Below are positions 1 through 52,420 of a stretch of 55,416 nt of DNA, piece after piece (position 1 is the stretch's first letter; each line of letters starts with the position of its first letter). The DNA comes from an uncultured Candidatus Saccharibacteria bacterium. Lineage in GTDB: Bacteria > Patescibacteriota > Saccharimonadia > Saccharimonadales > JAUPVS01. The translations under genes and the position numbers were made by a program. The stretch lies in contig CAYWVZ010000006.1 in NCBI GenBank assembly GCA_964462215.1, positions 1 to 55,416 on the forward strand, written 5' to 3'. Below the pieces are notes generated by a model. The model saw nothing but the letters and a program-made list of their open reading frames with translations, ran no database searches and was not told where the DNA came from.

Positions 1-1857
1 ACTGAAGAGGCCGCCGACACTGATGTCGTTGCCGTAGGTCCGGAGGTAGGGTTTGTTTGTAATATGATAATCTGTGGAACACAAACTAGACTGTTCGGCA
101 GAACTTACCTCGGTATCAGGTATATTGTTCCATCGCACCCGCCACCTTGCCTCATAAGTCCCTTGTGTGCCGAGCTGGAAACCGCTAAATGTCCTGGTGT
201 ACGTGCTGGGCGCTATGGCGTCCGGGCTTGTCTGTTCCGCATTAGTCGCGCTAACCATGTTGGCGACTATATCGTAGCGCAGCGACCTGCCCTGTGCCCC
301 CGGACTATAGTTAACCCCAAAGGTGGCGCCAAAAGACTGGCCAGGCTCGGGGTTTTCCGGATTTAAACTAAAACTAGTATTGCATGTAGGCGGCGCGCAA
401 GCCGGTATATTTCTGGGACTGCTATTGAGTTCAATATTCGAGGCGCCGGGAAGCGCCAACGCATACACATACACGTTCGTGCCATACGCATCATAGAACG
501 GCTCTATGGCCGAGCGGGGAATCTCGAAGCCGTAATCGGTATACGAATCACCCGGGAAATAGGCATTGCGCACGTCAGGCCTGGAAACCACTTTGTAGTA
601 ATAAAATCCGCCTGACTGCTTGCCTGCTGGCGGGTTGCCTGAACCGGTCCAAGGCCGGAACTGGCCGATCTTCCTGTTTGTCCCGTTCCAGGGTGCATCC
701 AGAAAAACATCCAGCCACGGCTTATTCTGACGATCGCTCGGATGAAGCGCCCACCCCCAAATACTGCTGCAACTCGCACCATCAAGCGTGCCTTTCGGTG
801 ACTGGTAGCAAGTTGGTGCCGCAGTGTTTATATCATCAAACGGAAACCACAACTGTAACCCATTATTGGCACGTACGTTCTGCCAGGTCCATGTAAAAAT
901 ATCTCCCGGCTGCACACCTGTTATTGAACGGGAGCCGTATTCGCCGTCACCCCCAAGTGCAGCCCCGCTCACCATTATATTCTGTATTGTCTGGCCATCG
1001 CGTACCTGGCTAAGTGTAAAGTAGAGGTTCGGGTTCCACCAGTTAGGGTTAAAGACCGCATCGGCATCATACCATTGCAGATTAAAGGAGCTATTGGCCG
1101 CTATATTGCAGTTAGCCTTAAATTGAAATGCCATACTGTCGGTGTGGGTTGTACCACCACCTATGTTCTGGGAGGGATTGCGGTTTTGGATAGCTACAGG
1201 GAGACTATTATTAATCCTGGCATGCGCAATAAAGCCCGCTTTTCCGTAAGATGCTTCCACCCGAAAGCCATTAATATTCCCCGGCGTTATGTATGCATCA
1301 TAAGGAGCATCGTAGAGACCCATGCCTATTTCTATATAATAATTATACTTTTGGTTCAGGTCTGACTGCTCTACCGTAGCGGAATTTATAGAGATAGGGA
1401 TATAGTCACTCCAACCGCCCGATGCCCCTCCTTCGATCCAGTGGGCGTAAATAGGACCTATACAATTGGTGGTTGGACGTTCCTGTCTGTCTAAAGCACA
1501 AACCTTTGCGTACGCCATATTCTGCAGGGCACTGCAGCTGCCAACCGGCTTGCCAGTAGCCGACCCGTAGTCTATCGGCGAGTTTTGGTGCATACAGAAA
1601 TCGTAAACCCGAAAAGATCTATCATTAGGGGTGTCGTATGTTAATTTGGCATAAGATTTGAGAGCATTAAGGGTGTTATCCGGCGGGTTTTGCTTGGATG
1701 TTTCCATATAGATGCTGGACCAATTTGGGCCAATTGCTGTAGACGGGAACTCATCGGGCCACCCATAAATAGCACTTGCACTGCCGCCCATTCCCACAAT
1801 CACCCCCGCAGTAAGTGCTACCAGGATACTAGGCCAAACAGCCCTACGCCATTTCAT
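1..1857 (-). CDS. Large secreted/cell-surface protein, N-terminal 619 aa only (gene runs off the window start)
   Basis: Absent from the supplied ORF track because no stop lies in the window. Minus-strand ATG at 1855-1857 is followed by 619 sense codons down to nt 1. I checked every + strand triplet 1-3, 4-6, ... for tta/cta/tca and found none. N-terminus MKWRRAVWPSILVALTAGVIVGMGGSASA has basic residues plus a hydrophobic span (signal peptide or anchor). The rest is Cys/Trp/Asn/Gly/Tyr-rich with no family I recognise. ATGA overlap with the stop of the upstream gene. Confidence 0.75.
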   Translation of the reverse strand, partial: MKWRRAVWPSILVALTAGVIVGMGGSASAIYGWPDEFPSTAIGPNWSSIYMETSKQNPPDNTLNALKSYAKLTYDTPNDRSFRVYDFCMHQNSPIDYGSATGKPVGSCSALQNMAYAKVCALDRQERPTTNCIGPIYAHWIEGGASGGWSDYIPISINSATVEQSDLNQKYNYYIEIGMGLYDAPYDAYITPGNINGFRVEASYGKAGFIAHARINNSLPVAIQNRNPSQNIGGGTTHTDSMAFQFKANCNIAANSSFNLQWYDADAVFNPNWWNPNLYFTLSQVRDGQTIQNIMVSGAALGGDGEYGSRSITGVQPGDIFTWTWQNVRANNGLQLWFPFDDINTAAPTCYQSPKGTLDGASCSSIWGWALHPSDRQNKPWLDVFLDAPWNGTNRKIGQFRPWTGSGNPPAGKQSGGFYYYKVVSRPDVRNAYFPGDSYTDYGFEIPRSAIEPFYDAYGTNVYVYALALPGASNIELNSSPRNIPACAPPTCNTSFSLNPENPEPGQSFGATFGVNYSPGAQGRSLRYDIVANMVSATNAEQTSPDAIAPSTYTRTFSGFQLGTQGTYEARWRVRWNNIPDTEVSSAEQSSLCSTDYHITNKPYLRTYGNDISVGGLFS

Positions 1858-2411
1858 TGCCGTTCAACTCCGATTGGCGTGCCGGTGGTAACGATAGTTT
1901 CTAGTTTAGCGGCAGTTTCTTGATCGCGCGGCAGAGGACTGTCTTTCAACACAACAATGGCGCGTTCATAAAAAGCATTGCCAGGTTCTTTTCTACCAAG
2001 GTCATATTCATAGCCGCCATTCATGACCAGGGCATTGATGTTTTGGGGGTCTAATAATAAGATCTGGTTATTGCTGGCTATGGCACACTCATAATCCTTT
2101 TCCGTCGCACACAGGTTTGACCGTGCCATGTATAAATTAACTTTCTTTTCAGTCTCCGGTGTTTGGGCGATTATAGCGTCTATGTTGGCAAGGGCTCCCG
2201 CTAAGTCATTATTTTCGAGGGGTCTGGCGGCATTCTGTAATTCAATGGCTTCTGCCGATAAGGCACTGTAATCCGGCACCTTGGATTGCTGATGTTTACG
2301 ATATACCATCCAGCCACCCCAGATAACGGCAGCTACTAGGCCCGCAGCTATAATAACGATAACAATAATTAGGAAAGGCTTTCTCGCCGGCGGATTTACA
2401 GGTTTGGCCAT
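1854..2411 (-). CDS. Membrane-anchored helical-repeat (TPR-like) protein
   Basis: 185-aa ORF starting at ATG 2411. N-terminal TM span FLIIVIVIIAAGLVAAVIWGGWMV. The remainder is helical-repeat-like (LYMARSNLCATEKDYECAIASNNQILLLDPQNINAL...). Its stop overlaps the next ATG (ATGA, 1854-1857), suggesting translational coupling with the large secreted protein. Confidence 0.6.
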   Translation of the reverse strand: MAKPVNPPARKPFLIIVIVIIAAGLVAAVIWGGWMVYRKHQQSKVPDYSALSAEAIELQNAARPLENNDLAGALANIDAIIAQTPETEKKVNLYMARSNLCATEKDYECAIASNNQILLLDPQNINALVMNGGYEYDLGRKEPGNAFYERAIVVLKDSPLPRDQETAAKLETIVTTGTPIGVERQ

Positions 2412-2673: not shown

Positions 2674-2752
2674 AGGTTCCCTTTCTTGAATAATCAAGTG
2701 CTGAGGACGAGCCAAACGGTCCGCCCTCAGGCAGCATTATTTTCGCAACCTA

Positions 2753-2770
2753 TTCTTAAAAAGTTCTTAA
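2753..2770 (+). promoter_or_regulatory. Direct repeat TTCTTAA-N4-TTCTTAA (11-bp phasing); candidate OmpR/PhoB-type response-regulator box upstream of the regulator's own gene
   Basis: TTCTTAA at 2753-2759 and 2764-2770, with an inverted copy TTAAGAA at 2816-2822. It sits inside the 16-mer AACCTATTCTTAAAAA (2747-2762), which recurs exactly at 52268-52283. Located 77-94 nt upstream of the regulator ATG at 2847. Confidence 0.4.
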
Positions 2771-2846
2771 TTATTAAATTTTCTATGGTGTTGTGTATAA
2801 AAAGTTAATAAGTTTTTAAGAATTGTATTATTAAATAAAGCCAGTA

Positions 2847-3527
2847 ATGAGTAAACTTCTCGTCGTTGAAGACAATGAACCATTGGCCGCTAGTCTGCAG
2901 AACTGGTTAAGTAAGCAGCACCAGGTTTCGGTTGTCTCCACCGGCCAAGAGGCGTTGTCTCACCTAAAGGAAGATGAGTACGACCTGATTATCCTTGACC
3001 TGGGCCTGCCGGATATGTCTGGCCAGGACGTTTGTACCGAACTGCGCTTAAACGGAGTTAAGACACCTTTGCTCATCCTAACGGCCACCGACGAAGTTAA
3101 CATGAAGGTTACCCTGCTCGACCTGGGTGCCGACGACTACCTGCTCAAACCGTTTTATATCGGCGAGCTGCAAGCCCGTCTGCGGGCTCTGCTGCGCCGC
3201 AGTAAGAACCCCAGCGAGGCCACCAGCGTACTAACGGTGGGCGACCTGGTGCTTGATCCGGCCCGGCGCCAGGTTACCCGCGGCGACAAAGTCATCCGTT
3301 TGCGGCGCAAGGAGTTCGATATTCTGGAATACCTGATGCACAATCGCGGTACGGTAGTAACACGCGCCATGATTATCAACAATGCCTGGGATGCCGGTAG
3401 CGACCGCTGGAATAATACGGTTGACGTACACGTCAAATATTTACGCGACAAGGTGGACAAGCCTTTTAAGCGTAAGCTTATCAAAACTGCATACGGGGTG
3501 GGCTATATGATTGATGACACCATGTAG
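2847..3527 (+). CDS. OmpR/PhoB-family two-component response regulator
   Basis: 226 aa. Receiver domain (LLVVEDNEP ... DLIILDLGLPDMSG ... LLKP) plus winged-helix output domain (LTVGDLVLDP ... RLRRKEFDILEYL ... TAYGVGYMI). Confidence 0.9.
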   Translation: MSKLLVVEDNEPLAASLQNWLSKQHQVSVVSTGQEALSHLKEDEYDLIILDLGLPDMSGQDVCTELRLNGVKTPLLILTATDEVNMKVTLLDLGADDYLLKPFYIGELQARLRALLRRSKNPSEATSVLTVGDLVLDPARRQVTRGDKVIRLRRKEFDILEYLMHNRGTVVTRAMIINNAWDAGSDRWNNTVDVHVKYLRDKVDKPFKRKLIKTAYGVGYMIDDTM

Positions 3528-3559
3528 CTAGTAGCGTAATATACAAGAAAGGAGAGGCC

Positions 3560-3667
3560 ATGAAAGACGTAATTGCCAGCATCTTAACTGATGCCAGCGC
3601 GCGCGACAGCAATACCGTTGAAGATACGTTAATGCAACAAGCAGTTGCGACGCCTTGGGCCAACTAA
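3560..3667 (+). CDS. Unannotated 35-aa peptide MKDVIASILTDASARDSNTVEDTLMQQAVATPWAN (candidate signalling/RiPP precursor)
   Basis: Below the ORF-track size cutoff. ATG 3560 is preceded by AAAGGAGAGG, with the GGAG core 5 nt upstream. 35 sense codons, then TAA at 3665-3667. It fills an otherwise unexplained 213-nt gap between regulator and kinase and is followed by a strong terminator. A single Trp sits 3 residues from the C-terminus. Confidence 0.5.
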   Translation: MKDVIASILTDASARDSNTVEDTLMQQAVATPWAN

Positions 3668-3695
3668 GATCTGTGACTGATCTTGGCCCATAAAT

Positions 3696-3730
3696 ACTGG
3701 GCGTTCTACTAAGGAACGCCCAGTTTTGTT
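3696..3730 (+). terminator. Rho-independent terminator/attenuator between the small ORF and the histidine kinase
   Basis: ACTGGGCGTTC (3696-3706), a 7-nt loop, then GAACGCCCAGT (3714-3724) form a perfect 11-bp stem followed by TTTTGTT. The T-tract abuts the kinase SD (AGGAG 3731-3735), leaving no room for a separate promoter. Confidence 0.7.
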
Positions 3731-3740
3731 AGGAGCTACT

Positions 3741-5114
3741 ATGCTAGAAAGACCGTACCGACAACTTATTGAACCGAAGTCATCCACCCCAGATAGCCGT
3801 AACCGCGAGTTAGTGCTCAATTGTTTACTCCTCGGGACTATACTACTAGCCACGCTAGCCTTGCTTAACACTATTATCAGCCTGGTGTTTTTTGATTATC
3901 AGTTTCTGGCGACGCGCATCATAGCAATTATAGCCGTACTCGTTTTTCTTATATCTTTATATGGTATCGTTCGCAAAGGCTTTCGAGCGGTCGGAGCCGT
4001 TATTCTAATAGGGGTGTTTTTCTTGATCGCCGCATATCTAGCTTATTATTGGGGCACCGTCACTCCTACTGCCGTCCTGATGTTTGGCTTTAGCATTATC
4101 ATGGCTGGCGTATTATTGAGCGCTCGCTATTCCCTCTATGTGGCGGGGGCTTCGATTGTGGCACTCGTGAGTCTCCAGTATTTGCAGGCCGGGATGCGTA
4201 TCCAGGCCGACCTCTCCTGGATGCAGCGACCAGCTACCATGGGTGATATTATTGGTTTTTGCGCCATCTACGGCGTACTGGCTTTGAGCAGCTGGCTCTT
4301 CAATCATCAGATGGAGCGGTCATTGCAGCGGGCTCAGCGGTCAGAGGCGGCCTTGTCGCAGCAAAAAGCCCTGTTAGAGGTCAAAGTCGAGGAACGTACC
4401 CGTCAGCTGGAGGCCGCGCAACTGGAAAAGATCCAGCACGTCTACCGCTTCGCCGAATTAGGGCGTACCAGCAGTGCCCTATTCCATGATCTGGCCAACC
4501 ATTTGACCAGCATGTCATTAGATATCGAAGGCCTGAAGTCGCGCGGGCGCTCCGATATCATGCAGCGCATCAAAAATGACGTTCAGTACATTGATGATGT
4601 CGTGCAGCGGGTTCGTTTCCAGCTGCGCGGCCAAACCAAAACCGAGGAATTCAATGTCGCCAAAGAAATCACTCAGGTTATTAAGATTCTTAAGTACAAA
4701 ACCGGCCAGGCCCGCACTACCATTAAAGTCACTAAAGTCTCCCGCAAGCCAATTATGTATGTTGGTGATGTAACCCGCTTCCGGCAGTTGATCATCAACC
4801 TGCTCAGCAATGCTATCGAAGCCTACCCGCCGCCCACGGGACGGCCCACTGAGCAGCGGTTGGTGGATGTCAAAATTGAACAATTATTTGATGCAATCGT
4901 TTGTATCACTGTAACAGATTGGGGCGTGGGCATTAAGCCGGCCCAAAAGCGCAAAGTCTTTGAGCCTTTTTACAGCAAAAAACCCGAAGGAACGGGCATC
5001 GGATTATTCATCGTCAAGCAAATCATCGAGCAGGATATGCACGGTACCATCAAGCTCACTAGCAGCCCTAAACGCGGCACGGTCTTTACGGTGCATCTGC
5101 CGACTTCGTCATGA
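3741..5114 (+). CDS. Sensor histidine kinase with polytopic (about six TM) membrane sensor
   Basis: The ORF-track start at 3726 is a TTG inside the terminator T-tract. ATG 3741 has AGGAG 5 nt upstream. Six hydrophobic spans lie in the first ~190 aa with no large external loop. These are followed by a coiled coil, H-box FHDLANHL, N-box LLSNAIEA, and G-boxes DWGVGI / GTGIGL. Confidence 0.9.
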   Translation: MLERPYRQLIEPKSSTPDSRNRELVLNCLLLGTILLATLALLNTIISLVFFDYQFLATRIIAIIAVLVFLISLYGIVRKGFRAVGAVILIGVFFLIAAYLAYYWGTVTPTAVLMFGFSIIMAGVLLSARYSLYVAGASIVALVSLQYLQAGMRIQADLSWMQRPATMGDIIGFCAIYGVLALSSWLFNHQMERSLQRAQRSEAALSQQKALLEVKVEERTRQLEAAQLEKIQHVYRFAELGRTSSALFHDLANHLTSMSLDIEGLKSRGRSDIMQRIKNDVQYIDDVVQRVRFQLRGQTKTEEFNVAKEITQVIKILKYKTGQARTTIKVTKVSRKPIMYVGDVTRFRQLIINLLSNAIEAYPPPTGRPTEQRLVDVKIEQLFDAIVCITVTDWGVGIKPAQKRKVFEPFYSKKPEGTGIGLFIVKQIIEQDMHGTIKLTSSPKRGTVFTVHLPTSS

Positions 5115-7102
5115 GAGATGCGGCCTTGACTGTTTCGATTAATCGAGCAACGGTCTGCGGCCTGAAATATATCCGGGCCCAGCAACAAGCCAACGGCGGA
5201 TTCATTAGCCAGTCAAGCCCGCGGCAAACACCGTGGCAACCGGCCTATCACTATCGAACGGTTTTCGTGCCAGCCCTGATGCTGGCTAGCTTAGCGGGCC
5301 AAACAAGTAGGGCTGCTCTGGAGATACGGCAAAAATTAGCCGGTTTTTTACTGACCCAAAAAGGCCCGCACTGGTCGTTTAACTACTGGGCTAAACGGAC
5401 GCCGGAACGCCGTACCATGCCCTATCCGGACGATTTGGACGATACGTTTTGCGCTTTAATCGGCCTGCACCTTCATGATCCGTCCCTGGTAGGTGAGTCG
5501 GCGCTGGCCCAGGTCGTCAAATTACTGGTGGCTACCGAAACAGCCGTCGGCGGGCCATACCGTACCTGGCTGGTAGCGCCCAAGGCCGATCCTAAAGACG
5601 TCTGGCAAGACATCGACTTGGCTGTTAATGCCAATATTGCCTACTTCATAGCTTCGGTTGGCAGCCGTTTGCCGCAACTTGACGCGTTGTTCCAAACCGC
5701 TATCCGGCAACAGCAATACCGTTCACCCTACTACCCTTCCGCCTATCCTATTTGGTACTACCTGGCTCGCGCCAGCTCTGTGCAGATGCGGCCGGCCCTG
5801 CGCCAGACCATCAAGCAAGCCTGGCGGCAGAACAAACAACCAACTCCTCTGGAGACGGCGTTGGTGTTAACCAGTTTATGCCGGCTGGGCGCACCGGCCG
5901 GGCAGCCGCAGCGTTTGGCCAAGCAGTTGCTGGCCGCCCAGCTGCCAGACGGCTCGTGGCCGGCCGCCGCGTTCTGTATCGACCCGGCCCGGCAGCAACG
6001 CCATCACTATCACGGCAGTAGCGCCCTCACAACAGCCTTCGCTCTGGAGGCCCTGGAACGATACCGGCAGTCAAACCAAGCCGAGGCAACCGCACCAGCT
6101 CGTAAACCAGCCGCCAAAGCCGATCCGCGGGCCGGGCGTTTACAGCAGCGCATCCTAACCCAAGCCAGCCGCCAGGCTGACCAGCTGCAGCCTGACCTCC
6201 GGCGGCAATTAAACACGTTCTTGCAGCGAGTTGTCAAAGGTGACACTAAACACGAAATTACCCTACTGCCCTACCTGTTCACAAGGTCTTTGGCGCGTCC
6301 GGCCAAACTGCCTGATTCTTTGTTCATTAACTTTGGTTTGGCCAATCTGTACGGCTGGGTGGCCTATACCATTTATGATGACTTTTTAGACGATGAGGGC
6401 GACCCGCGTTTGCTGTCGGCAGCCAACGTTGCTCTGCGTAATTCTGTGCTCAGTTTTCAGCGGGCCTTGCCCGGTAAGACCGCCTTCCAAAAGCTGGTCG
6501 AACAAACCTTTAACACTATAGATAACGCCAATACCTGGGAAGTTACCCATTGCCGTTTCGCGGTAGACGGCCAATCGATCAAAATCGGCGCGCTGCCGCG
6601 TTACGGCGGGCGGCAAAAACTGGCCGAACGTTCGCTGGGGCACGGCTTGACGCCGCTAGGTATTCTGGTGGCCCGGGGAGCCAGCCTTAACAGCCCGGGT
6701 GTACAGGCCATTGAACAAGCCTTTCGGCATTATTTGATTGCCCGGCAGCTCAACGACGATGCGCACGACTGGAAAGAGGATGTCCAAAAGGGTCATATCA
6801 CCTACGTAGTGGTTTGCATCCTGCAAGAGATGGGCTTGAGCGGGCAACAATCGTTTGCGGATTTATTGCCAACCATGGAACGGCAGTTCTGGCACCATAC
6901 TTTGCCGCGGGTCTGCCGCGATATCCAGCGTCATATAGCCCGGGCGAGGCGATTGCTGGCTAAAAACTCGTATCTGTACCCTGTTAATGCGCTGACAGTT
7001 TTGCTTGATGGGATTGAAGCTTCGACCCAAGAAGCCATAGATAGCCAGCGGCAAACCGTACAATTCCTGCAAAGTTACCGGGGTCAAAAAACAAATTCTT
7101 AA
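5111..7102 (+). CDS. Two-domain isoprenoid-enzyme-like protein: N-terminal prenyltransferase/terpene-cyclase-repeat (alpha/alpha toroid) domain fused to a C-terminal class-I isoprenoid-synthase-like domain
   Basis: 663 aa, with ATGA overlap with the kinase stop (5111-5114). N-terminal domain: QQANGGF, AVGGPY, LPDGSWP repeats and YPDDLDDTFCAL (DxDDT, nt 5429-5446). C-terminal domain: YDDFLDDEGD (6377-6397) and, 125 aa later, LNDDAHDWKED (6752-6781). The CDS call is secure. The function is inferred from motifs only. Confidence 0.6.
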   Translation: MRDAALTVSINRATVCGLKYIRAQQQANGGFISQSSPRQTPWQPAYHYRTVFVPALMLASLAGQTSRAALEIRQKLAGFLLTQKGPHWSFNYWAKRTPERRTMPYPDDLDDTFCALIGLHLHDPSLVGESALAQVVKLLVATETAVGGPYRTWLVAPKADPKDVWQDIDLAVNANIAYFIASVGSRLPQLDALFQTAIRQQQYRSPYYPSAYPIWYYLARASSVQMRPALRQTIKQAWRQNKQPTPLETALVLTSLCRLGAPAGQPQRLAKQLLAAQLPDGSWPAAAFCIDPARQQRHHYHGSSALTTAFALEALERYRQSNQAEATAPARKPAAKADPRAGRLQQRILTQASRQADQLQPDLRRQLNTFLQRVVKGDTKHEITLLPYLFTRSLARPAKLPDSLFINFGLANLYGWVAYTIYDDFLDDEGDPRLLSAANVALRNSVLSFQRALPGKTAFQKLVEQTFNTIDNANTWEVTHCRFAVDGQSIKIGALPRYGGRQKLAERSLGHGLTPLGILVARGASLNSPGVQAIEQAFRHYLIARQLNDDAHDWKEDVQKGHITYVVVCILQEMGLSGQQSFADLLPTMERQFWHHTLPRVCRDIQRHIARARRLLAKNSYLYPVNALTVLLDGIEASTQEAIDSQRQTVQFLQSYRGQKTNS

Positions 7103-7147
7103 ATAGTTATTAATTTTTGCGGGGTTAGCAGCGGACTTTAGTATAAT
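7096..7147 (+). promoter_or_regulatory. radC promoter region: TTCTTAA/TTATTAA 11-bp-phased repeats plus TATAAT placed 7 nt before the ATG
   Basis: TTCTTAA at 7096-7102 (includes the TAA stop of the upstream gene) and TTATTAA at 7107-7113. TATAAT at 7142-7147, ATG at 7155, and no SD in between. Confidence 0.4.
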
Positions 7148-8225: not shown

Positions 8226-9302
8226 ATGAGTTTATCTATCGGCATCGTCGGGTTGCCCAACGTGGGCAAAAGTACCCTGTTTAATGCCCTGACCGACAAT
8301 ACTATCTTGGCGGCTAACTATCCGTTTGCCACGATTGAGCCGAACACCGGTATCGTGCCGATCCCCGACCCGCGACTCAATAAGCTGGCCGATTTGTACA
8401 AAAGCCAAAAAATCGTGCCGGCCACGGTGACGTTCGTGGATATCGCCGGTTTGGTGGCCGGTGCCAGCGAGGGCGAAGGCCTGGGTAACCAGTTTTTGGC
8501 GCACATCCGCAGCACCAATGCTATCTGCCAAGTGGTGCGGGCTTTTCATGACGATAACGTCGTCCATGTCGATAACCAGATCGACCCGCTGCATGACATT
8601 GACATCATTAACACCGAATTGGTGCTGGCCGACCTGCAGACCGTCCAGAAACGCCTGCCCAAAACCGAAAAAGAGGCCAAGGCCAACCCTAAGCTAAAGC
8701 CGGTGGTCGATACGCTCAAGCGTGTTGAAACGTTGCTGAACGACGGCACACCCCTGTCGCGGGCGGCTGACATCGACCCCGAACATATTGCCGACCTGCA
8801 GCTGCTAACTGCCAAGCCAGTAATCTACCTCTTTAATGTTGATGAGCAAACGCTAAACGACCAAACTAAACAGCAAGAACTTGCCGCCCTGGTAGCGCCG
8901 GCTCAAGCTCTGTTTGTGTGTGCACAGCTGGAAGCCGAGCTAAACGGCCTGGACGCCGATGACCGCGCCGAAATGCTGGAAAGCTACGGCCAAACCGAGT
9001 CCGGCCTAGTGCAACTAATTCATGCCGCCTACGACACATTAGGCCTGCAAAGTTACCTGACAGCCGGCGAAAAAGAAGTCCGCGCTTGGACCATTCCCAA
9101 GGGTGCTACCGCCCCGCAAGCCGCCGGCGTTATCCACGGTGATTTCGAAAAAGGTTTTATCGCGGCGCAAATTATCGATTACCACGATCTTATCGCCGCC
9201 GGTTCGGAAACCGCGGCTAAAGCTGGCGGCAAAGTCCGCACCGAGGGCAAAACCTACGTTATGCAGCCCAATGACATCGTCGAATTCCGCTTCAACGTTT
9301 AA
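8226..9302 (+). CDS. ychF: Ribosome-binding ATPase YchF
   Basis: 358 aa. GIVGLPNVGKSTLFNALT P-loop, a coiled-coil insert, and a TGS-like C-terminus (AGVIHGDFEKGFI...). Confidence 0.9.
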   Translation: MSLSIGIVGLPNVGKSTLFNALTDNTILAANYPFATIEPNTGIVPIPDPRLNKLADLYKSQKIVPATVTFVDIAGLVAGASEGEGLGNQFLAHIRSTNAICQVVRAFHDDNVVHVDNQIDPLHDIDIINTELVLADLQTVQKRLPKTEKEAKANPKLKPVVDTLKRVETLLNDGTPLSRAADIDPEHIADLQLLTAKPVIYLFNVDEQTLNDQTKQQELAALVAPAQALFVCAQLEAELNGLDADDRAEMLESYGQTESGLVQLIHAAYDTLGLQSYLTAGEKEVRAWTIPKGATAPQAAGVIHGDFEKGFIAAQIIDYHDLIAAGSETAAKAGGKVRTEGKTYVMQPNDIVEFRFNV

Positions 9303-52248: not shown

Positions 52249-52341
52249 TGTGGATAACTAATTATTGAACCTATTCTTAAAAACTGATTAAATTTCCGAA
52301 AGTTTTTCCACAGGCTACCGAATATGCTATGCTGTGGAAAA
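52249..52341. promoter_or_regulatory. Cluster of DnaA-box matches in a 405-bp AT-rich intergenic region
   Basis: TGTGGATAA (52249-52257) is the exact complement of TTATCCACA. TTTTCCACA (52304-52312) and TGTGGAAAA (52333-52341) are 8/9 matches; extended by one base each they give a 10-bp inverted repeat (52304-52313 / 52332-52341) with an 18-nt spacer. There is also a 7/9 match at 52176-52184. Confidence 0.45.
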
Positions 52342-52392
52342 TTTCAAAAAAAGCCCATTAATTAATCGACAGATACTTAAAAAGTTATTAAC

Positions 52393-52420
52393 TCTTAAAA
52401 AAATCTTAAATTCCTCTTAA
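52393..52420 (+). repeat. Three TCTTAA direct repeats at exact 11-bp spacing upstream of valS
   Basis: TCTTAA at 52393, 52404 and 52415, with a degenerate AATTAA at 52426. They lie 41-68 nt upstream of the valS ATG. Related TTCTTAA (52274-52280) and TTAAGAA (52229-52235) lie further upstream. Confidence 0.5.

Follow-up and report, generated by a model that had tools for sequence, protein, structure and literature searches.

The 213-nt gap (positions 3528-3740) between the response regulator and sensor kinase genes of an uncultured Candidatus Saccharibacteria bacterium holds a 35-codon open reading frame (ORF) which, judged by its sequence in relatives, is a genuine conserved gene. It was studied in a stretch of 55,416 nt (contig CAYWVZ010000006.1 of assembly GCA_964462215.1; hereafter the window), in which the regulator gene ends at 3527 and the kinase ATG lies at 3741. 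We propose, with a probability of roughly 60%, that the ORF encodes the precursor of a terpene-modified ribosomal peptide and that, together with its three neighbours (the regulator, the kinase and a 663-aa protein with predicted cyclase and prenyltransferase domains), it makes up a signalling cassette complete in itself and ancestral in Patescibacteria. A preliminary description of this DNA had placed a peptide precursor gene inside a two-component operon, a proposal upheld by the conservation of the ORF throughout the superphylum and by the enzyme downstream, which shows the folds and motifs of a known type of peptide maturase directed at tryptophan (Trp). The features it listed, namely the gap of 213 nt, a Shine-Dalgarno sequence (SD), the 35-codon ORF, a small hairpin and a terminator stem, were all confirmed at their places (Table 1).

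By itself an ORF of this length is insignificant, since dozens of chance ORFs of about 35 codons occur in the window, so its reality rests on conservation. A genome scan with one genome per species gave 253 loci; 80 of them were fetched and inspected, their gene order being read by tblastn with the window proteins. The order of regulator, gap of about 140-450 nt, kinase and 663-aa protein recurs in nearly all 80 loci, which belong to Saccharibacteria, Microgenomates (Daviesbacteria, Levyibacteria, Shapirobacteria), Parcubacteria, Doudnabacteria and others. The regulator stands upstream of the peptide in 62 of the 80, and the peptide stands upstream of the kinase wherever upstream DNA exists (80 loci; Saccharibacteria, Microgenomates, Parcubacteria). 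Every locus with an upstream regulator, except those numbered L053 and L060, has a gap ORF of 34-42 aa, or a longer one if an in-frame upstream start is used. The family follows the pattern M-x6-[ILV]-L-T-D-x3-R, then about 17-19 residues, (P)-W and a further 0-8 residues. Searched strictly, this pattern recovered the peptide in 67 of 76 kinase-bearing loci, and the nine misses comprise four loci cut by a contig end, slight variants in L042, L043, L057 and L079, and L053, which has no canonical start. At L053 (5388-5507) a peptide-like sequence (..KKLLKKVFINKVIRDTMAISAFVVIIMETTLVWS) is present with no ATG, GTG or TTG between the in-frame TGA and the conserved N-terminal motif; translation may begin at a non-canonical codon, or this may be a gene in decay.

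The conservation lies in the protein. Among 58 aligned peptides, with 17-71% identity to the window peptide, L9, R15 and W33 never vary and M1 hardly does, more than 70% have Pro before the Trp, and the distance from the Arg to the Trp is almost constant; across the orthologues the invariant W33 lies 0-8 residues from the C-terminus. AAGGAG or a near variant precedes the peptide ATG in nine of ten aligned loci, L026 having only AGGAA. In a hand count of codons for one pair, the window and L008, 13 of the 35 codons differ synonymously only, 10 differ non-synonymously and 12 are identical, with the invariant columns clustering at codon positions 1 and 2, a pattern of change that indicates purifying selection at the protein level. 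Conservation in relatives had been set as a test of the ORF beforehand, and the ORF is indeed kept in related genomes with synonymous changes in excess. That ORFs of 30-40 codons are common by chance in the window would speak for a chance frame in a long structured spacer; the comparative data refute this explanation, to which we give a negligible probability.

Searches of Pfam and NCBIfam with the peptide matched no family. A word-indexed profile search returned 30 proteins of 32-60 aa, without a Pfam match and named at most "hypothetical protein", and an exhaustive hidden Markov model search of 1.84 billion representatives gave 432 clusters at E <= 1e-3, none of them named. The best 150 of the 432 clusters are all 34-82 aa long, and the match ends at most 3 residues from the C-terminus. 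The members are mini-proteins in their own right, none forming a domain within a larger protein. Two peptides found by the profile only (L081 and L082) again lie between a regulator and a kinase followed by a protein of about 610 aa. The L082 frame (5001-5110) has a TGA where the invariant Trp codon is expected (...VMSP-TGA-SSTP-TAG), which could be a nanopore TGG-to-TGA error, the mark of a pseudogene or a UGA read as Trp. Two flavours of the peptide can be told apart: those of Saccharibacteria have a polar, amphipathic middle, and those of Microgenomates and Parcubacteria a Lys-rich N-terminus and a hydrophobic middle, both retaining L9, R15 and P-W (alignments A2 and A7). In an AlphaFold2 (AF2) model built with the family alignment (predicted local distance difference test, pLDDT, 76), helices span residues 2-15 and 17-27, and an extended tail, 28-35, bears the P-W. 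With its conserved helical N-terminus and a fixed distance to the Trp, the peptide seems to have a leader that places a core in the enzyme.

The probable nature of that enzyme emerged from its modelled structure, searches by sequence having told little by themselves. At the default threshold Pfam gave no match for the 663-aa protein; weak matches were Terpene_syn_C_2 (0.024) and TIGR01787 (squalene cyclase, 2.5e-5, far under its cut-off), and neither PF00348 nor the NCBIfam ComQ models matched even at E <= 10. A sequence search of the PDB matched drimenol synthase, and a PDB profile search reached 1.9e-14 for the cyclase half. With the AF2 model (30-sequence alignment, pLDDT 91), Foldseek matched the N-terminal half (residues 1 to ~330) to monodomain class II cyclases (AsDMS drimenol synthase, 1.7e-11; MstE, 3.6e-7), as well as to small myxobacterial cyclases (1.7e-9) and drimenyl diphosphate synthase, and the C-terminal half to trans-IDS enzymes (isoprenyl diphosphate synthases of the trans type), namely geranylgeranyl diphosphate, hexaprenyl and solanesyl synthases (2e-4 to 2e-3). 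D108, D110, D111, D423, D424, D427, Q546, D549, D550 and D553 are invariant in 30 orthologues, as are H552 and W554. As modelled, the enzyme thus joins the folds of a class II cyclase and a trans-IDS-like prenyltransferase together with their catalytic motifs. Homologues number more than 1000, and the named ones belong to Candidatus Saccharimonadales or other Patescibacteria.

The linkage of these genes withstands rearrangement. The order of peptide, kinase and enzyme is kept where the regulator has moved, either downstream on the other strand (L067, L077, L079) or about 1.8 kb downstream (L057). L071 is rearranged further, with a polyprenyl synthase, the peptide and the kinase on one strand and the enzyme gene divergent. 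A polyprenyl synthase (PF00348, about 1e-55) also lies between regulator and peptide in L043 and L044, and a divergent one adjoins the regulator in L082, where its gene is split into two ORFs; such synthases in or near the cassette suggest a dedicated supply of prenyl donor. In the window, the kinase stop and the enzyme start overlap in ATGA (5111-5114), which suggests translational coupling and perhaps a physical complex of the two proteins. The kinase has six hydrophobic transmembrane (TM) segments between residues ~24 and 187, as counted by eye, without any large external domain; behind them come a coiled coil, an H-box (FHDLANHL) and HATPase_c. The SD of the kinase gene stands directly after the terminator-like tail of the gap; a formal alternative start, TTG 3726, lies inside the T-tract, and ATG 3741 was taken as the start because of the SD and the fit to orthologue N-termini. 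In nearly all loci the kinase orthologues align from residue 1-10 onwards, membrane part included, and the alignment of this part across the superphylum fits a conserved lipophilic ligand. We infer that the kinase senses the modified peptide.

Maturases of a similar build are already known. ChrPC (trans-IDS-like) and NctPC (ABBA-type) are prenyltransferase-cyclase fusions that prenylate a peptide Trp and then cyclise the chain, with prenyl sizes of C10-C20 and C20, respectively, the cyclase of NctPC being MstE-like (PMC13290415). A Gln just before the second Asp-rich motif, thought to recognise the indole, is found in ComQ, PalQ, the P domain of ChrPC and Ord1, and Trp is the acceptor of every characterised trans-IDS-like peptide prenyltransferase (PMC13290415). 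The cassette enzyme likewise unites a trans-IDS-like domain and an MstE-like monodomain class II cyclase in one protein and carries the DxDD motif, the first Asp-rich motif and, in what is presumed to be the register of ComQ, PalQ and ChrPC, the Gln before the second, the motif being taken from the description in that review (PMC13290415). Like ChrPC as described there, it has a ribosomal precursor with a conserved Trp encoded next to it. ChrPC differs in belonging to a sporadic biosynthetic cluster, whereas the cassette is tied to a two-component system within the core genome of a superphylum; the cassette enzyme has its cyclase N-terminal and its transferase C-terminal. The precursor represents a new family of 35-40 aa. 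To our knowledge, the precursor types reported for ChrPC-type maturases are proteusin, Nif11 and lasso, and the cassette peptide is none of these.

On the signalling side, two systems invite comparison. ComQXPA, too, comprises four genes on one strand (trans-IDS-like enzyme, Trp-bearing precursor, polytopic kinase and regulator) with no dedicated exporter or protease, and W33, third from the end, stands in a place comparable to that of the modified Trp of ComX, which is 3rd or 4th from the C-terminus (PMC5331326). Its gene order, however, is Q-X-P-A, against A-X-P-Q here; ComA is of the NarL/LuxR type (PF00196), against an OmpR-type regulator with Trans_reg_C; ComP has HisKA_3 (PF07730) and 8-10 TM helices, against HATPase_c only and about six helices (by eye); ComQ, a polyprenyl_synt-like isoprenyl transferase (PF00348/IPR033965), is without the additional cyclase domain, and no similarity in sequence can be detected between it and the cassette enzyme; and ComX is 52-73 aa long, against 35 aa with a conserved leader. 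A Pfam search found no match of the peptide to the ComX family (PF05952), ComX being too variable for homology searches. The census of ComQXPA lists Firmicutes only (PMC4008528), and a census of quorum-sensing genes in the Candidate Phyla Radiation and DPANN makes no mention of ComX or ComQ (PMC7567580). Membership of ComQXPA is refuted by the OmpR-type regulator, the kinase without HisKA_3, the enzyme dissimilar to ComQ, the gene order and the conservation of the peptide. PalPXQ of Paenibacillus shares with the cassette a kinase, a precursor with a conserved leader and a C-terminal Trp, and a trans-IDS-like prenyltransferase (PMC10853753). [quoted passage not shown] The best-supported reading is that the cassette would work like ComQXPA or PalPXQ with a ChrPC-like cyclisation added, as a member of neither.

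The same peptide and enzyme could also be uncoupled from each other. The peptide may be an unmodified accessory of the kinase, in the manner of MgrB or SafA, while the enzyme makes a free terpenoid, for example a membrane lipid, under control of the two-component system. Such an arrangement would account for the position of the peptide, always directly upstream of the kinase and not of the enzyme, for its hydrophobic, TM-like middle in Microgenomates and Parcubacteria, and for the conservation of both the peptide and the sensor domain, which are not co-diversifying; both enzyme domains, moreover, also resemble enzymes of free isoprenoids. We nevertheless consider it unlikely. The sole invariant residue in the C-terminal part of the peptide is a Trp, usually after Pro and in an unstructured tail, that is, a residue of the acceptor type (PMC13290415), and the enzyme keeps the Gln and Asp-motif signature described for Trp recognition. 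The peptides of Saccharibacteria, that of the window included, are polar and not membrane-like, and the linkage of peptide and enzyme survives the rearrangement in L071.

A modified peptide, in turn, might chiefly be an effector, either an antimicrobial or a lipopeptide acting on host membranes, the two-component system only regulating it or sensing otherwise, an arrangement found at many lantibiotic loci. Most Patescibacteria live as episymbionts and need to act on host envelopes, and the sole characterised cyclic-terpenoid RiPP (a peptide made by ribosomes and modified after translation) reportedly has modest antibiotic activity. Terpene-RiPP hybrids, linear and cyclic, are classed with bioactive RiPP lipopeptides (PMC13647313), and prenylation boosts the membrane activity of antimicrobial peptides (PMC13290415). 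Against this stand the lack of an immunity or export gene in the cassette, the extreme conservation of the peptide across the superphylum in housekeeping surroundings, unlike that of arms-race bacteriocins, and the kinase itself, whose six TM segments without an external domain fit the sensing of a lipophilic ligand. An effector as the chief function is, in our estimate, distinctly improbable.

The terpene-modified signal reading is accompanied by a conspicuous RNA architecture. The stem-loop between peptide and kinase (Table 1) has the form of an intrinsic terminator, with a G+C-rich stem, a short loop and a U-rich tail, and the 81 nt after the peptide stop fold at -33.1 kcal/mol, compared with -17.2 for shuffled sequences (z = -5.8; none of 200 shuffles as good). 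It had previously been called a perfect 11-bp stem: the 11 Watson-Crick pairs hold, and one extra G-U pair has to be added. The earlier view that a terminator-like stem sets the precursor gene apart from the genes downstream agrees with the presence of this stem 3' of the peptide stop. The spacer between the peptide stop and the kinase start was folded for 40 loci, 20 closer (Saccharibacteria-type) and 20 distant. Strong stems 3' of the peptide stop are conserved in about 26 of the 40, although their sequences differ. They include (near-)perfect G+C-rich stems of 10-13 bp, all of different sequence, in 15 of the closer loci (L014 having a longer one), and strong stems in 11 of the distant loci, of which L040, L056 and L075 have textbook terminators, as does L082. 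L026, L029 and L039 leave no space between the peptide stop and the start of the kinase gene; the stem, though frequent, can thus be dispensed with. Close relatives do not keep the first hairpin after the ORF, L008, for instance, having just one hairpin.

A further hairpin spans the stop codon of the regulator, its 5' arm lying within conserved G-Y codons. It was missed by RNAalifold on the regulator-to-peptide spacer and was afterwards tested explicitly: over 10 loci, 80.5% of the cells pair, against 27-33% with a slid partner, and three pairs show compensatory changes. With this hairpin on the 5' side and the stems on the 3' side, the peptide cistron is bracketed by structured RNA. In lantibiotic and other RiPP operons (nisA, sboA), a stem-loop after the precursor gene is thought to raise precursor mRNA over the downstream mRNAs. 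The cassette resembles these operons in having a stem-loop directly after the precursor gene and differs from them in the position of that gene between regulator and kinase and in the second conserved hairpin on the 5' side. The hairpins flanking the cistron probably raise peptide mRNA above kinase and enzyme mRNA, and some transcripts may end at the predicted stem. A candidate promoter for the peptide gene alone (ATGACA-17-TAATAT, 3514-3542) is not kept in the 10-locus alignment and is not claimed.

The same structures could be read as a leader-peptide attenuator, in which translation of the ORF controls the terminator and the peptide product is functionless; the last codons of the ORF pair in the first hairpin, a strong terminator-like stem stands just before the kinase SD, and a Trp codon lies three codons before the stop. 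This alternative, also raised in the preliminary description, is unsupported: purifying selection acts on the peptide across phyla, and an antiterminator is not evident, the folds giving no competing pairing. What is conserved is the amino acids (L9, R15, W33 and the length across phyla), while DNA and hairpin sequences differ; there is one Trp codon only and no run of regulatory codons; the first hairpin is lost in close relatives; and there is no room for a terminator in L026, L029 and L039, about one third of the loci being stemless. Attenuation by a functionless leader is therefore very improbable.

Transcripts were found for one relative. No RNA run matched the window or L059, and five soil metatranscriptomes held RNA contigs matching L005. 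The peptide region of L005 (ORF 5322-5429) is transcribed, being covered without mismatch in four of the five runs (contigs 5280-5501, 5289-5501, 5302-5505 and beyond, and 5302-5461). The 5' end of the kinase gene was seen in two runs, regulator fragments in two, and neither the remainder of the kinase gene nor any part of the enzyme gene in any of the five, which suggests that the peptide region is the most abundant RNA of this locus. An excess of regulator transcript, which had been expected along with that of the peptide, is not indicated, regulator fragments being rarer than peptide fragments in these contigs. The hairpin at the regulator stop points to a separately stabilised peptide segment. 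Contigs in two independent runs end at 5501, about 72 nt past the peptide stop, and restart at 5538 or 5540, ahead of the kinase start at 5603, and a third run has an indel and a single-nucleotide polymorphism just past 5505; the gap at 5501 could be a processing site, a 3' end or an assembly break at a polymorphic spot.

Several observations weigh against a terpene-modified signal peptide with its own kinase. The cassette contains no gene for a protease or an exporter. By sequence, the C-terminal domain of the enzyme does not significantly match ComQ, PalQ or Pfam polyprenyl_synt, the resemblance being at the level of the fold only (about 2e-4). ComX pherotypes are hypervariable, whereas the cassette peptide is highly conserved, and in Microgenomates and Parcubacteria the middle of the peptide resembles a membrane helix or signal peptide and fits a membrane-resident partner no less than a secreted signal. 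As for the RNA, the stems of most relatives lack a clear U-tract and about one third of the loci have none, and the L005 contigs are tiny, of low depth, possibly DNA-containing and from a relative, with ends that may be assembly breaks.

The regulator, for its part, may have a recognisable target. The pattern CTTAAAAAGTTMTTAA has 6 matches in the window, compared with 0.07 expected, at three intergenic places only: upstream of the regulator, behind the enzyme gene and upstream of valS (Table 1). Upstream of the regulator, TTCTTAA half-sites repeat with an 11-bp period, and direct repeats with this period suit an OmpR-type regulator. Such boxes also precede the regulator gene's orthologues in L001, L008 and L017, and L001 has, in the corresponding position behind its enzyme gene (8955-8970), a similar box with 3 mismatches. 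The boxes may be a putative operator of the OmpR-type regulator and, given their place upstream of its gene and their 11-bp repeats, autoregulation is plausible.

The rest of the window is housekeeping in nature, with genes for FtsK, RNase J, PNPase, PolA, RpoD, DnaG, ArgS, ValS, a MurC-like protein, TsaD, RadC and YchF, which places the cassette in the core chromosome and not on an island. Rfam and tRNA scans of the window gave no match, so the gap holds no known riboswitch or leader. Positions 1-2400 carry many short overlapping ORFs, the sole long one (185 aa, 1854-2411, minus strand) having a sub-threshold PilO-like match.

Table 1. Coordinates of the cassette and associated features, in the window unless a locus number is given
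Feature	Position	Strand	Details
Candidate operator upstream of regulator	2742-2822	.	16-mer CTTAAAAAGTTCTTAA at 2755-2770 (+), inverted copy at 2805-2820 (-)
OmpR-family response regulator, 226 aa	2847-3527	+	Pfam Response_reg 1.8e-26, Trans_reg_C 5.1e-24
Hairpin over regulator stop codon	3501-3529	+	arms 3501-3508 GGCTATAT and 3522-3529 ATGTAGCT
SD of peptide gene	3548-3557	+	AAAGGAGAGG; AGGAG core 5 nt before ATG 3560
Proposed precursor peptide gene, 35 codons and stop	3560-3667	+	translation MKDVIASILTDASARDSNTVEDTLMQQAVATPWAN
First 3' hairpin	3657-3689	+	GGGCCAA/TTGGCCC, inner AAGATC/GATCTT; AGATC-N7-GATCT core 3667-3683; overlaps last codons and stop
Terminator-like stem-loop	3696-3730 (stem 3696-3724)	+	12 pairs (11 Watson-Crick and one G-U; 7 G-C), 5-nt loop, TTTGTT tail
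Sensor histidine kinase, 457 aa	3741-5114	+	Pfam HATPase_c 2.2e-25; SD TAGGAG 3730-3735
Predicted fused class II terpene cyclase and trans-IDS-like prenyltransferase, 663 aa	5111-7102	+	AF2 model, Foldseek, PDB profile
Enzyme motifs	residues 107-112, 423-428 and from 546		DDLDDT 107-112 (N-half); DDFLDD 423-428 and Q546-L-N-D-D-A-H-D (C-half)
Third 16-mer box	7098-7113	+	CTTAAATAGTTATTAA; end of enzyme gene, upstream of radC
16-mer boxes upstream of valS	52276, 52376, 52394 (span 52276-52409)		TCTTAA repeats every 11 bp
Polyprenyl diphosphate synthase gene, L043	397-1419		
Polyprenyl diphosphate synthase gene, L044	4310-5347		
Polyprenyl diphosphate synthase gene, L071	~5884-6900	-	
Polyprenyl diphosphate synthase gene, L082	3100-4190	-	

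Taken together, the cassette might operate as follows. Transcription of the operon would begin upstream of the OmpR-type regulator, and the 5' hairpin and 3' stem-loops would attenuate read-through or stabilise a processed segment, leaving more mRNA for the peptide than for kinase and enzyme. The first two thirds of the peptide, which are helical and contain L9 and R15, would serve as a leader docking on the 663-aa enzyme, and the fixed spacing of 17-19 residues would put the Trp of the tail into the active site. There the trans-IDS-like C-terminal domain would move a C15 or C20 prenyl group onto the indole, and the N-terminal class II domain would protonate and cyclise the attached chain. We infer this modification of the Trp, as well as an export or cleavage step; the lipophilic product, its leader removed or not, would reach the membrane and be sensed by the six-helix domain of the kinase, which would phosphorylate the regulator and so bring about its binding at the boxes that precede its own operon and a small number of further genes. 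More tentatively, and at clearly less than even odds, Patescibacteria may share an ancestral autoinducer circuit of the core genome, in which a peptide of 35-40 aa carries a cyclised terpenoid on its Trp and is sensed by a 6-TM kinase. Since both the enzyme type and kinase-sensed, Trp-prenylated peptides are already known, the novelty lies in the variant found in Patescibacteria. The searchable literature contains no description of this cassette or peptide family in Patescibacteria, the genome mining of the primary ChrPC study possibly already listing a clade from that group.

Patescibacteria account for a large part of bacterial diversity. Their genomes measure about 1 Mb and encode few regulators, and their ways of sensing neighbours or hosts are little known. 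The cassette, whose four genes are retained from Saccharibacteria through to Parcubacteria, offers a concrete candidate for this sensing that can be put to the test. Its small gene is missed or called hypothetical by most pipelines, and the profile M-x6-[ILV]-L-T-D-x3-R-x17-19-P-W can be used for calling it. The cassette also provides a short natural substrate and a well-folded two-domain enzyme for work on peptide lipidation. If our reading is true, no peptide-pheromone system would have been proposed earlier for these ultra-small episymbionts, and a class of RiPPs would be housekeeping there and not accessory; the circuit may then report cell density or host contact. Terpenylation of Trp in ribosomal peptides, so far a matter of the specialised metabolism of Firmicutes, Bacteroidota and cyanobacteria, would in that case become part of a superphylum's core biology.

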